This document shows, in pieces, positions 18,943 through 21,351 of a stretch of DNA of 32,000 nucleotides (position 1 is its first letter; each line of letters starts with the position of its first letter). Source of the DNA: Deinococcus radiodurans R1 = ATCC 13939 = DSM 20539 (GTDB lineage Bacteria > Deinococcota > Deinococci > Deinococcales > Deinococcaceae); assembly GCF_000008565.1 (NCBI RefSeq), contig NC_001263.1:1790603-1822602 (forward strand). The letters run 5' to 3'. The position numbers were made by a program, and so were the translations under genes. Below the pieces are notes generated by a model. The model searched no databases. It was given only the letters and a program-made list of their open reading frames with translations, and was not told where the DNA came from.

Positions 18943-20007
18943 ATGAAAGGTGACATGACACTAGACCCCATGAAGTTGCTTCCTCCCGGCGTGCGACCTT
19001 TCGAGGTCACCCTGCACCCCGGCGGACAGCTGGACATTCGCGGCCTGGACGAGGAAGCGCAGGCCATGCAGGTGGCCGAGGCCCTGAAACAGACGCCGCT
19101 GGCGGGCGTGCGTGAGGACACGGCGCTCTGGCGGGTGCGCGGGCTGCTCATTCGCGGTCAGGCGCAGTTGTACGAATACGCGGTATCTGAAACGGGCGAC
19201 GCGGAGGAGGCGAGCTGGGAAACGCGCCCCTTTCCCGACATGCCCGGCGTGCCGGTGCAAGGGGACGGGGCGGCGCCGAGCACCTTCGACGCGCTGCACT
19301 ACCGTGAGGGCCGCATCGACCTCGAACCCGACGCGCCCGACGACCTGCTCGACGCGGTGGAAGACGCCGTGCGCGAGTACCACGGCACCGAGCAAAACTG
19401 GGCCGAGCGCCACGCGGCGGCGGGCGGCCCGGCAAACGAACTGCCCGAAGCGCGGCGGGTGCGGCTGCGGCTGGAGGAGACGGGGCTGGATGGCGCGGCG
19501 GGACTGCGGTTCGTTGCCCTGCCCGAGACGGCGGAGTATCTGCACGGCGGCGAGTGGCACCCTTACGCGCCCGCCCCGCAGAACCTCGCCCTCGACGCAC
19601 CCGAGCAGTCAAACGAGGAAGATGACAGCCCCTTCGACCTCTTTTCCTCGCTGTTCGACCTGCACAGCGTGACCGCCGAGCTGCACGCCGACGGGCGGGT
19701 GGAGGTGCAGGGCGAGGATCTCGCGCCGGAGCTGCGCGCGGCGTTGCAGTCTCACCTGGGGGCCGACCTCGGCGCGGGCGACCCGGCGAAGTGGGAGGTG
19801 GCCCTGCGCGGGCTGTTCGGCCTGGAAGAAGGCGACGAGGTGCCGAGCGGCCTGCGCGTGGGCCTGCTGCGTCAGATGGTGGAGGCCGACCCCGCACTGG
19901 CGGCGCAGGCCATCACCCCGAGCGCCGTGACCTTCGACGGGCAGACCTGGACCGAGCTGGATGATGGGGACGATGGGGACGAGCCCGATGAGGGGGACGA
20001 CGAATGA
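18943..20007 (+). CDS. Hyper-acidic hypothetical protein A (three-module repeat architecture)
   Basis: 354 aa with high GC3. The tail is ELDDGDDGDEPDEGDDE. It is a clear paralog of the next gene, for example HYREGRIDLEPDAPDD vs HWLEGRIDVTPDVGELDE, and VTFDGQTWTEL vs VTFDGETWRDL. An alternative start is the ATG at 18955. Confidence 0.7.
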   Translation: MKGDMTLDPMKLLPPGVRPFEVTLHPGGQLDIRGLDEEAQAMQVAEALKQTPLAGVREDTALWRVRGLLIRGQAQLYEYAVSETGDAEEASWETRPFPDMPGVPVQGDGAAPSTFDALHYREGRIDLEPDAPDDLLDAVEDAVREYHGTEQNWAERHAAAGGPANELPEARRVRLRLEETGLDGAAGLRFVALPETAEYLHGGEWHPYAPAPQNLALDAPEQSNEEDDSPFDLFSSLFDLHSVTAELHADGRVEVQGEDLAPELRAALQSHLGADLGAGDPAKWEVALRGLFGLEEGDEVPSGLRVGLLRQMVEADPALAAQAITPSAVTFDGQTWTELDDGDDGDEPDEGDDE

Positions 20008-20037
20008 CGCGCCGCTCTCTGCCACACTGGGGCCATC

Positions 20038-21351
20038 ATGGGTGAAGCCAAACGACGCAAACAACTGGGCCTGATGCCCACCGTCTTTCCTTTTCGCGCC
20101 GAATTGGGGCGTGACGGCGAGGTGCGGGTGCTGCAAGGGCCGGAGGACGCCGGGCAACGGGCGCTGATCGAAAAGGCGCTGCGCGACTCGCAGTCGTTCG
20201 GGGCCGCCTGGGACGCCGAATACCGCACGGTCAGCGTGCTCGGCAGTCGGGGCGGTGAGCGCTACGCCACCCGCGAGGACGTGGAGCGCATTCCCGTGCC
20301 CGCGCTGCGGCAACTCGACGGCGAACTGGCGCTGGGCAGCGCCGGCCAGAGCCAAGGCGCCGTGATTCCGGTGGAGGGCGGCAGCGTCCGGTTGCGCGAG
20401 CAGCGGCACTCCTTCGAGGGCGAGAACTGGCAGACCCTGCCCCCGCTGCGCGACCCTCAGGTGCTGATGCGCGCGCTGCAACAGCACCCGGCCTTCGACA
20501 TCGAGGGCGAGTCGCTGGGGCAGTTTCAGGCCGACCACTGGCTCGAAGGCCGGATCGACGTAACGCCTGACGTGGGCGAGCTCGACGAGAACGGCGAGAC
20601 ACTGGAATTTTTCGAGACGCTGGTCAAGGAGTTCCACGGTCAGACGCCCGAAGAGTGGACGGCCATGCACCGCGAGATGCTGGAAGGGCAGCAGGAGGGC
20701 GACCTCACGCCCGAGCGCGAGCAGGCGCTGGCCGCCGCGCTGGGCGAGGTGCCGATGGCGCGGCGCTCGTTCTTCGAGATACGCCGCTCGGCCCCACTGC
20801 AAAGCCCGCTGATGGCGACCGCCTATTTCCGCGACCTCGAGTTTTATCTGCTCAGCGGCGCGGCGTACACCCTCGACGGCGACACCTGGCACCCCTACGA
20901 GGACCCCGACACCGAAATTGAGGGCGGCGGGCTGGCCCCCGAACTCGCCGAGTTTTTCGACCTCAACATGATGACCGTGACCGTCCACAGTGACGGACGG
21001 GTGGAGTGGGACGAGGACGAGGAACTGAGCGAGGACGACATTCGGCAGCTTCAGACCGACCTCGCCGAGTCCACCGGGGCCGGCAACCCGCAGGCGTGGG
21101 CGGAGTGGAACCGCACCATGCTTCAGGAAGTGCTGGGGACCGAGCTGACGGTGCCGGACGGCGAGCCCTTGCCCGTGCCCGTCGCCATTCGCCTCGACAT
21201 TCCCCGCGACGTGCTGGGCGACGACAGCCCGCTCGCGCAGACCTACATGGAGTCCGAGGTGACCTTCGACGGCGAAACCTGGCGCGACCTCTACAGCGAG
21301 GAAGTGCCGGAGGAGCTGCTGCCGTTCGCCGCCGGGCAGGAGAGCAACTGA
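20038..21351 (+). CDS. Hyper-acidic hypothetical protein B (paralog of A)
   Basis: 437 aa with a basic N-terminus MGEAKRRKQLG followed by an acidic body. It carries the same alternating motifs as protein A. Confidence 0.7.
   Translation: MGEAKRRKQLGLMPTVFPFRAELGRDGEVRVLQGPEDAGQRALIEKALRDSQSFGAAWDAEYRTVSVLGSRGGERYATREDVERIPVPALRQLDGELALGSAGQSQGAVIPVEGGSVRLREQRHSFEGENWQTLPPLRDPQVLMRALQQHPAFDIEGESLGQFQADHWLEGRIDVTPDVGELDENGETLEFFETLVKEFHGQTPEEWTAMHREMLEGQQEGDLTPEREQALAAALGEVPMARRSFFEIRRSAPLQSPLMATAYFRDLEFYLLSGAAYTLDGDTWHPYEDPDTEIEGGGLAPELAEFFDLNMMTVTVHSDGRVEWDEDEELSEDDIRQLQTDLAESTGAGNPQAWAEWNRTMLQEVLGTELTVPDGEPLPVPVAIRLDIPRDVLGDDSPLAQTYMESEVTFDGETWRDLYSEEVPEELLPFAAGQESN

Follow-up and report, generated by a model that had tools for sequence, protein, structure and literature searches.

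What is the role of two strongly acidic proteins whose genes are placed in the middle of a leucine biosynthesis operon? This question is raised by a locus of Deinococcus radiodurans R1 (= ATCC 13939 = DSM 20539), which lies in a chromosomal stretch of 32,000 nucleotides with a GC content of 0.63-0.75 (RefSeq assembly GCF_000008565.1, contig NC_001263.1, positions 1,790,603 to 1,822,602 of the forward strand). This stretch is termed the window in the following, and all positions refer to its first nucleotide as position 1. Between leuC and leuD, two adjacent genes encode the paralogous proteins A and B, which had been pointed out in an earlier note made from the DNA alone. We regard it as very probable that A and B each contain one module in triplicate and are members of a small family nearly confined to Deinococcus. 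For their function, the reading that we favour, tentatively and with a rough probability of 0.3, is that they are the acidic cytoplasmic binding subunit of a membrane cassette co-inserted into the leu operon, docked via the basic N-terminal head of B and made when leucine is scarce. The two genes and their parts are the following.

18955-20007, + strand, open reading frame (ORF) opening at 18943: protein A, 350 amino acids from ATG 18955 (354 from 18943), the headless acidic paralogue
18982-19254, + strand: module a1 of A, shortened (numbered from 18943)
19255-19584, + strand: module a2 of A (numbered from 18943)
19585-19968, + strand: module a3 of A (numbered from 18943)
19960-20004, + strand: tail of A rich in D, E, and G
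20038-21351, + strand: protein B, 437 amino acids
20038-20079, + strand: basic N-terminal head of B, MGEAKRRKQLGLMP, invariant across the B family
20077-20463, + strand: module 1 of B, residues 14-142, net charge -4
20464-20913, + strand: module 2 of B, residues 143-292, net charge -21
20914-21351, + strand: module 3 of B (residues 293-425, net charge -28) with a short C-terminal tail and the stop codon

The description of two tandem paralogous acidic ORFs in the earlier note was borne out, and all 14 of the 14 motif strings quoted there are present in the order given. A and B are 30% identical across 276 residues (BLASTP E 2e-19). The extreme negative charge was confirmed by computation, with isoelectric points (pI) of 4.19 for A and 4.29 for B and net charges of -50 and -52, respectively; aspartate and glutamate make up 21% of A and 20% of B, as compared to 12-17% in the neighbouring enzymes. 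Within the B family, the net charge is kept at -38 to -57, though most acidic positions vary. The charge is distributed unevenly along B, from +3 in the head through the nearly neutral module 1 to the strongly acidic modules 2 and 3. Neither protein contains cysteine, and no hydrophobic segment was found in A or B. A low lysine share (K/(K+R) 0.11-0.12) was considered as a special trait of A and B and dropped, as other fast-evolving high-GC genes of the window reach values as low as 0.02.

A and B are real genes under selection. Their GC content at third codon positions (GC3) is 0.86-0.87 in the proposed frames, homologues fall into 91 + 15 clusters, and the ratio of nonsynonymous to synonymous substitution rates (dN/dS) in comparison with a 90-96% identical relative (locus L023) is 0.215 for A and 0.198 for B. 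The corresponding values of the enzyme genes are 0.047 for leuC, 0.067 for leuB, and 0.037 for uvrD; A and B are thus under purifying selection that is 4-5 times more relaxed than that on the flanking enzymes. Protein A probably starts at ATG 18955, not at ATG 18943 where the ORF opens; the majority of the homologues begin at the equivalent of this codon (M5), and a Shine-Dalgarno-like sequence, AAGGTGA, lies ahead of it.

The internal triplication was examined by cutting an alignment of 37 B-family members into three sub-alignments and comparing these with hhalign, one partner being reversed as a control. The three modules of B align colinearly over 98-109 columns with E values of 3e-5, 5e-7, and 2e-7, as opposed to 0.05-0.27 and only 5-26 columns for the reversed controls. 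As reversal keeps the composition and removes homology, the triplication claimed in the earlier note is real and not a by-product of the acidic composition. Among the modules of A, the E values are 1.4e-5 (a2-a3), 7e-5 (a1-a3), and only 0.018 (a1-a2). When A and B are compared with each other, their modules pair one-to-one (3e-14, 6e-32, and 5e-30); the triplication is therefore older than the gene duplication.

The module comprises about 130 residues and is of the alpha/beta type. For B, AlphaFold2 with the 37-sequence alignment gave a mean predicted local distance difference test score (pLDDT) of 89.3 and a predicted template-modelling score (pTM) of 0.66; for module 3 alone, the values were 86.9 and 0.80, respectively. 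In the predicted structure, the elements follow each other in one order in all three modules. An optional lead helix is succeeded by a beta-hairpin containing a DG turn and by two long helices, of which the second begins at a conserved tryptophan; next come a strand starting from a (I/L)PVPxxxR motif, which marks each module, and a last hairpin with the sequence FDGxxW, these latter elements forming a two- to three-stranded beta-meander. The first hairpin corresponds to the histidine-containing motif of the earlier note; it is real and repeated, but its histidine is not conserved in the family, and the constant core is the (D/E)G-R turn. The tryptophan motif of that note is the last hairpin and is repeated even in the DNA, where it is detectable as a 22-nt repeat in four copies. 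The positions invariant in the 37 B-family proteins are tryptophan, glycine, proline, and the D/G of the turns, together with a single histidine. Invariant W, G, P, and DG turns point to structural, not catalytic residues, and neither a catalytic signature among the invariant positions nor a conserved cluster of metal ligands was present in this alignment. As judged from sequence and model, A and B are soluble, cytoplasmic, and non-enzymatic proteins, and the earlier proposal of a repeat-fold scaffold, which had been derived from the triplication, the gene duplication, and the extreme negative charge, is supported.

The family of both proteins is small, uncharacterised, and almost restricted to Deinococcus, and no relatives of it are recognisable. 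When 1.84 billion representative proteins were scanned exhaustively with the family profile (HMMER), only 52 were returned at E <= 1e-3. Homologues of B reach E values down to 1e-276 at 37-96% identity and about 100% coverage (77 clusters), and A has 11 close clusters. No match was obtained in Pfam or NCBIfam for A, B, or the separate modules, nor at E <= 10 in Pfam for any of the 37 family members; A, B, and the three small membrane proteins encoded nearby matched none of the anti-phage defence and phage families of PADLOC and PHROGs at E <= 0.1, and a profile search of the PDB sequences gave only noise (E >= 0.32). A well-characterised family as a match for the two proteins, which would have undermined the earlier note, was thus found in none of these collections. 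With Foldseek, nothing significant was obtained in the PDB for the whole protein (best E 0.053, template-modelling score 0.12) or for one module (best E 0.039, score 0.2), nor in BFVD (best E 0.36). Weak matches to giant repetitive proteins were rejected as homologues, as they are limited to profile positions of about 237-282, recur 5-24 times in proteins filled with CHB_HEX_C domains, and are explained by the YTxDG motif of these domains; neither A nor B matched the CHB_HEX_C model of Pfam. In UniRef, the members from D. depolymerans and D. caeni are labelled 'DUF1444 family protein', which would make the family related to YtpQ/CgoN, an alternative coproporphyrinogen oxidase. This assignment is hardly credible and was rejected, since PF07285 is unmatched at E <= 10 in 37 + 3 members, both labelled ones included, and precomputed Pfam domains of any kind are absent from all listed family members; the label probably stems from automatic prediction.

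Four architectures occur in the family: headed three-module proteins of the B type, headless three-module proteins of the A type (also P0103-P0105, P0117, and P0152), headed two-module proteins with an acidic low-complexity tail (P0079-P0091), and single-module proteins of 136-158 amino acids (P0139, P0142, and P0144). The existence of the last group indicates that the module is an autonomous unit. Some of these variants are encoded on contigs of 44-48% GC, so that their hosts are not typical Deinococcus. Distant members are located outside leu operons: P0152 is encoded upstream of a membrane-anchored DsbA (5-nt gap) followed by DsbB, P0112 upstream of recF, the single-module P0144 upstream of mfd, and the single-module P0139 upstream of a small transmembrane (TM) protein.

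The most informative context, which was absent from the earlier note, is the operon itself. From leuC to leuB, the genes form one compact run on the + strand with gaps of 1-31 nt and an overlap of leuD and leuB; within this run, no internal promoter-like sites or terminators above the shuffled expectation were found. The members of the run other than A and B are the following.

17268-18563, + strand: leuC, isopropylmalate isomerase large subunit of the hacA/LeuC family (PF00330 6e-108, TIGR01343 675 bits), first enzyme gene of the operon
18570-18911, + strand: TM1, basic, 113 amino acids, about four hydrophobic helices, belonging to a small-TM family whose genes precede the acidic ones in other Deinococcus
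21353-21703, + strand: TM2, basic, 116 amino acids, about four TM helices, starting 1 nt past the stop codon of B (TGAcATG)
21708-22034, + strand: TM3, hydrophobic ORF of 108 amino acids
22056-22682, + strand: leuD, isopropylmalate isomerase small subunit
22675-23733, + strand: leuB, 3-isopropylmalate dehydrogenase, overlapping the end of leuD (TIGR00169 437 bits, cutoff 353)

TM1, TM2, and TM3 show no detectable relatedness to each other, and none of the three matched a Pfam or NCBIfam model. Homologues of TM1 are present in the loci L022, L014, and L147. In comparison with L023, dN/dS is 0.19 for TM2 and 0.48 for TM3; TM3 is found only in the window and its closest relative (90% identical), has a GC3 below 0.75 and a relaxed constraint, and could be either young or in decay. 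At its C terminus, LeuD is extended (by the last 45 codons or so, past a core of about 160 residues covered by the family models); the extension is rich in G, D, E, and H and ends in HQKEEHHA, and the length of LeuD ranges from 180 to 211 amino acids among related loci.

Besides the leu operon, the window encodes uvrA, a leucine-rich-repeat-variant (LRV) protein, uvrD, a GntR-aminotransferase regulator, a pseudouridine synthase, and trpE. The LRV protein (11964-13358, + strand, 464 amino acids), located between uvrA and uvrD, has nine LRV repeats and a DUF2336 match and is nearly lysine-free (K/(K+R) 0.02). An ORF of 99 amino acids (16767-17066, + strand) between uvrD and the leader of the leu operon has no Pfam match and, as it is conserved with a dN/dS of 0.10 in a close relative, likely encodes a genuine small protein.

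When the operon is expressed can be judged from the region upstream of leuC, which contains two elements.

17111-17173, + strand: leader peptide of 20 codons with three consecutive rare CTT leucine codons at 17150-17158
17167-17236, + strand: predicted attenuator RNA, consisting of a hairpin that spans the stop codon of the leader (GAGCGC...GCGTTC-like) and a terminator stem (GCCCCCC...GGGGGC) followed by TTTTT

By its sequence, this region is a predicted leucine leader-peptide attenuator. CTT accounts for only 2% of the leucine codons in 11 genes of the window, and the GC-rich terminator stem with its T-run extends from 17201 to 17236. Of 16 loci, 10 encode a peptide of the pattern MF...LLL(R/C)(W/L)G(R/Q)* ahead of leuC. 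About 11 Deinococcus species have kept this pattern together with the run of CTT codons, the two hairpins, whose stems are invariant or nearly so, and a -10-like TAnACT box located a few bases before the leader ATG. The end of the leader (GGGGCG) could pair with the 5' arm of the terminator and thus act as an antiterminator; this pairing was spotted by eye, and the stems are too invariant for covariation. Since the TAnACT box is located just before the ATG, the transcript is probably leaderless, and leaderless leader peptides of this kind are known in D. deserti (PMC4007540). As A and B are part of an operon behind a leader with leucine codons and a terminator, they would be made together with LeuCDB when charged leucyl-tRNA is limiting. 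Searched by locus tag, the literature on the D. radiodurans genes located between leuC and leuD yielded only expression tables. Under heat stress, DR_1778 (leuC), DR_1779, DR_1780, DR_1781, DR_1783, and DR_1784 (leuD) all fall, with a gradient from -4.5 to -2.0 log2, DR_1782 being unlisted (PMC6888292); this joint decrease suggests co-transcription of whatever genes are placed between leuC and leuD there.

How constant this arrangement is was analysed in 21 Deinococcus loci, the window included. In 18 of these, a family gene is located directly after leuC or after leuC and a small TM or LysE gene, and in 14 of the 18, leuD-leuB come next. The exceptions are L016 and L019, which lack leuC, and L021, where B follows leuB. 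In D. frigens, D. marmoris, D. arenicola, and D. saxicola, leuC and B stand together and leuD-leuB are not within 6 kb. The contents of the insert between leuC and leuD are given below.

L001, L008, L009, L013, L015, L018 (six species at least): B only
L003: LysE-B
L002 (D. grandis): LysE-B-TM
L004: B (two-module)-LysE-TM
L020: B (two-module)-LysE
L022: TM1-LysE-A-B-TM
L023: LysE-A-B-TM2-TM3
Window: TM1-A-B-TM2-TM3
L147: TM-TM1-B'-A-B-TM

In L004, L013, L018, and L020, the intergenic gaps measure 0-5 nt. The number of family genes per locus ranges from one to three. In L147 (949-4892), three full tandem paralogues (headed, headless, and headed) lie between leuC and leuD, and in D. marmoris (L011 7391-8288) two additional pieces corresponding to module 3 only are found downstream of B. 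A gene for a LysE-type exporter is part of the insert in seven loci. Directly behind leuC, the window has TM1 (18570-18911), the 90-96% identical relative has LysE (L023 5364-5978), and the 62-71% identical relative has both (L022 2730-3716); differences of this kind between close relatives indicate that the insert turns over quickly. Where B is only 43-47% identical to that of the window, members of the TM1 family still lie upstream of the acidic genes and members of the TM2 family directly downstream of them. The distance from the stop codon of B to the start of the downstream TM gene is exactly 1 nt in five loci (window, L002, L010, L022, and L023), and in L010 this gap is kept although the TM protein belongs to a different family.

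A further element common to the B family is the N-terminal head. The basic MGEAKRRKQ start described for B in the earlier note is part of a head, MG[ED]AKRRKxLGLMP, which is invariant in 37 of 37 B-family proteins, and from which A is free. The only database echo of the head is to model positions 1-9 of DUF2839 (PF10999), with 13.3-14.2 bits and E values of 0.06-0.11. An assignment of B to DUF2839 was rejected: the head alone matches, the gathering score is 22 bits, and true DUF2839 proteins score 113 bits over the 67-position model. A metagenome scan for DNA encoding MGEAKRRK yielded at least 120 stretches, of which 80 loci (L024-L103) were examined. In these, the match nearly always opens an ORF, and in 27 of 75 the sequence goes on with xLG(L/I/V/M)xP as in B. 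The carriers comprise tail-anchored DUF2839 proteins (many in marine contigs of very low GC content), TM-anchored DsbA/Thioredoxin_4 proteins, several unrelated orphan families, Cys-rich orphans, and a group that continues as MGEAKRRKxxDPNYGK. Its presence on many unrelated proteins marks the head, as judged from these sequences, as a portable N-terminal element, which often seems to form the cytoplasmic N-tail of membrane-anchored proteins.

Taken together, these observations lead to the proposal of a cassette inserted into the leu operon, in which A and B would be joined by TM1- and TM2-family proteins, which are small, basic, and multi-TM, and in many species also by an exporter of the LysE type. 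Basic surfaces that the membrane partners expose to the cytoplasm would be bound by the acidic modules, and the MGEAKRRKxLGLMP head would serve as a docking peptide, a role that it may also have in the many membrane-anchored proteins whose cytoplasmic N-tail it forms; as a whole, the cassette might serve a membrane function linked to the leucine pathway, for example the efflux or homeostasis of a pathway metabolite. This reading derives from the constant places held by the TM families, from the 1-nt coupling, from the DsbA-DsbB and TM neighbours of distant members, and from the other carriers of the head. The earlier note had suggested a chaperone-like partnership with the flanking TM proteins, and the retained positions and the 1-nt gaps in five loci agree with it; a strict dependence on adjacent TM partners, though, is contradicted by the six or more species in which B is the sole gene between leuC and leuD. 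Several further points weigh against the proposal. About a quarter of all bacterial genes encode membrane proteins, and with such a base rate adjacency is weak evidence. All Deinococcus loci go back to one ancestor, so that the conserved position may reflect the inheritance of a single insertion and not function. Distant members reside outside leu operons beside recF, Mfd, and DsbA-DsbB, the head is also present on proteins without a predicted TM segment, and the geometry between the modules is uncertain in the model (pTM 0.66).

The position directly after leuC could also be read as a sign that B, with or without A, is an accessory factor of isopropylmalate isomerase, which binds the large subunit LeuC with its labile 4Fe-4S cluster and, before LeuD is added, stabilises it, holds it, or serves it as a scaffold. 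The 18 of 21 loci with B after leuC, the intergenic gaps of 0-5 nt in four loci, the four species in which leuC and B stay together with leuD-leuB not within 6 kb, and the presumed common expression under the leucine attenuator all fit this idea. We nevertheless consider it doubtful, because the LeuCD proteins of all other bacteria are not known to need such a factor and LeuC and LeuD are acidic themselves (pI 5.3 and 4.9), which makes a poor electrostatic fit with B. Moreover, cysteine or histidine residues conserved for Fe-S chemistry are absent, TM and LysE genes often intervene between leuC and B, the distant members are not beside leu genes, and the position after leuC is explicable as the original site of insertion. 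A further view is that the leuC-leuD junction is a permissive site gathering unrelated genes and that A and B are lineage-specific passengers whose function is linked neither to leucine nor to their neighbours. The insert content that differs even between 90%-identical relatives (TM1 in the window, LysE in L023), the copy number of one to three, the exceptional loci L016, L019, and L021, the distant members located elsewhere, and the 4-5 times faster evolution of A and B in comparison with the flanking enzymes speak for it; yet B persists at exactly this site genus-wide while its neighbours change, it is coupled to downstream TM genes by 1 nt, and it is under purifying selection, so that this view, too, appears rather unlikely.

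The charge itself has invited other interpretations, and the earlier note listed a DNA or polycation mimic and a metal or cation binder. In a general form, A and B would be polyanions which simply ride in the operon and either mimic DNA or RNA, act on basic proteins as a decoy, or buffer cations such as Mn2+ or polyamines. A net charge that is kept at -38 to -57 while the acidic positions vary, and the varied genomic contexts outside Deinococcus, are in line with this. For both proposals of the note, however, charge is the only support: structural similarity to PDB entries, including known DNA mimics, was not detected (best E 0.04-0.05, template-modelling score <= 0.3), and conserved metal-ligand clusters and cysteine are absent, with one histidine invariant. 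Furthermore, one divergent full-length member has a net charge of only -17, module 1 is nearly neutral, and the context offers no pointer to DNA transactions; we therefore judge the polyanion explanation improbable. A bolder idea starts from the head, which could be a cross-phylum N-terminal address peptide read by a conserved machine located on the ribosome or at the cytoplasmic side of the membrane; upon leucine shortage, B would then deliver a three-module acidic platform of unseen fold to this place and act as a starvation-induced adaptor. At present, we see this as a long shot.

If the membrane-cassette reading is correct, Deinococcus has added a lineage-specific, non-enzymatic module composed of acidic scaffolds, small membrane proteins, and an exporter to a biosynthetic operon that is among the most highly conserved in bacteria and placed it under leucine attenuation, and an unrecognised membrane-linked step would exist in branched-chain amino-acid homeostasis. 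Apart from this, the module of about 130 residues is a candidate for a new domain family, as it is confidently modelled and has neither a detectable sequence relative nor a Foldseek match, and the natural single-module versions make testing and crystallisation easy. Also of use is the MGEAKRRK head as an N-terminal motif with a wide distribution.

Comparison with known systems places the individual elements of the locus as follows. Like the leu and trp attenuators of Escherichia coli and those of D. deserti, the element upstream of leuC has a small ORF containing consecutive regulatory codons and a terminator ending in a U-run, together with a putative alternative pairing, and it resembles the leader peptides of D. 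deserti (PMC4007540) in that the transcript is apparently leaderless. It is simpler than the known attenuators, consisting of two hairpins, and no Rfam family was matched in the window. The small cyanobacterial tail-anchored proteins of the DUF2839 family share with B the N-terminal peptide MGEAKRRKxLG..P; they comprise about 70 amino acids, have a C-terminal TM helix, and lack the alpha/beta modules. ArdA, Ocr, DMP19, and MsyB-like proteins are hyper-acidic DNA mimics or decoys, which A and B resemble in their very low pI, the lack of enzymatic motifs, and a presumed electrostatic action; A and B differ from them in having no detected similarity in sequence or fold, in residing in a chromosomal biosynthetic operon and not on a mobile element, and in their size and three-module build. 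LysW, the acidic amino-group carrier of the alpha-aminoadipate lysine pathway of Thermus and Deinococcus, is a zinc-ribbon protein of about 54 amino acids with a conserved C-terminal glutamate. Whereas A and B have neither cysteine nor a conserved C-terminus nor similarity to LysW, the analogy being one of logic only, LysW is likewise an acidic non-enzymatic protein of the same phylum, is encoded in an amino-acid cluster with genes of the LeuC and LeuD families, and docks electrostatically to enzymes. The closest counterparts are the unnamed proteins of other Deinococcus species (e.g. WP_172418146.1 of D. indicus and DEIGR_101297 of D. grandis), to which B is 38-96% identical over its full length, which have the three modules, the head, and the position in the leu operon in common with B, and to which the window adds the headless paralogue A and the additional TM gene TM3.

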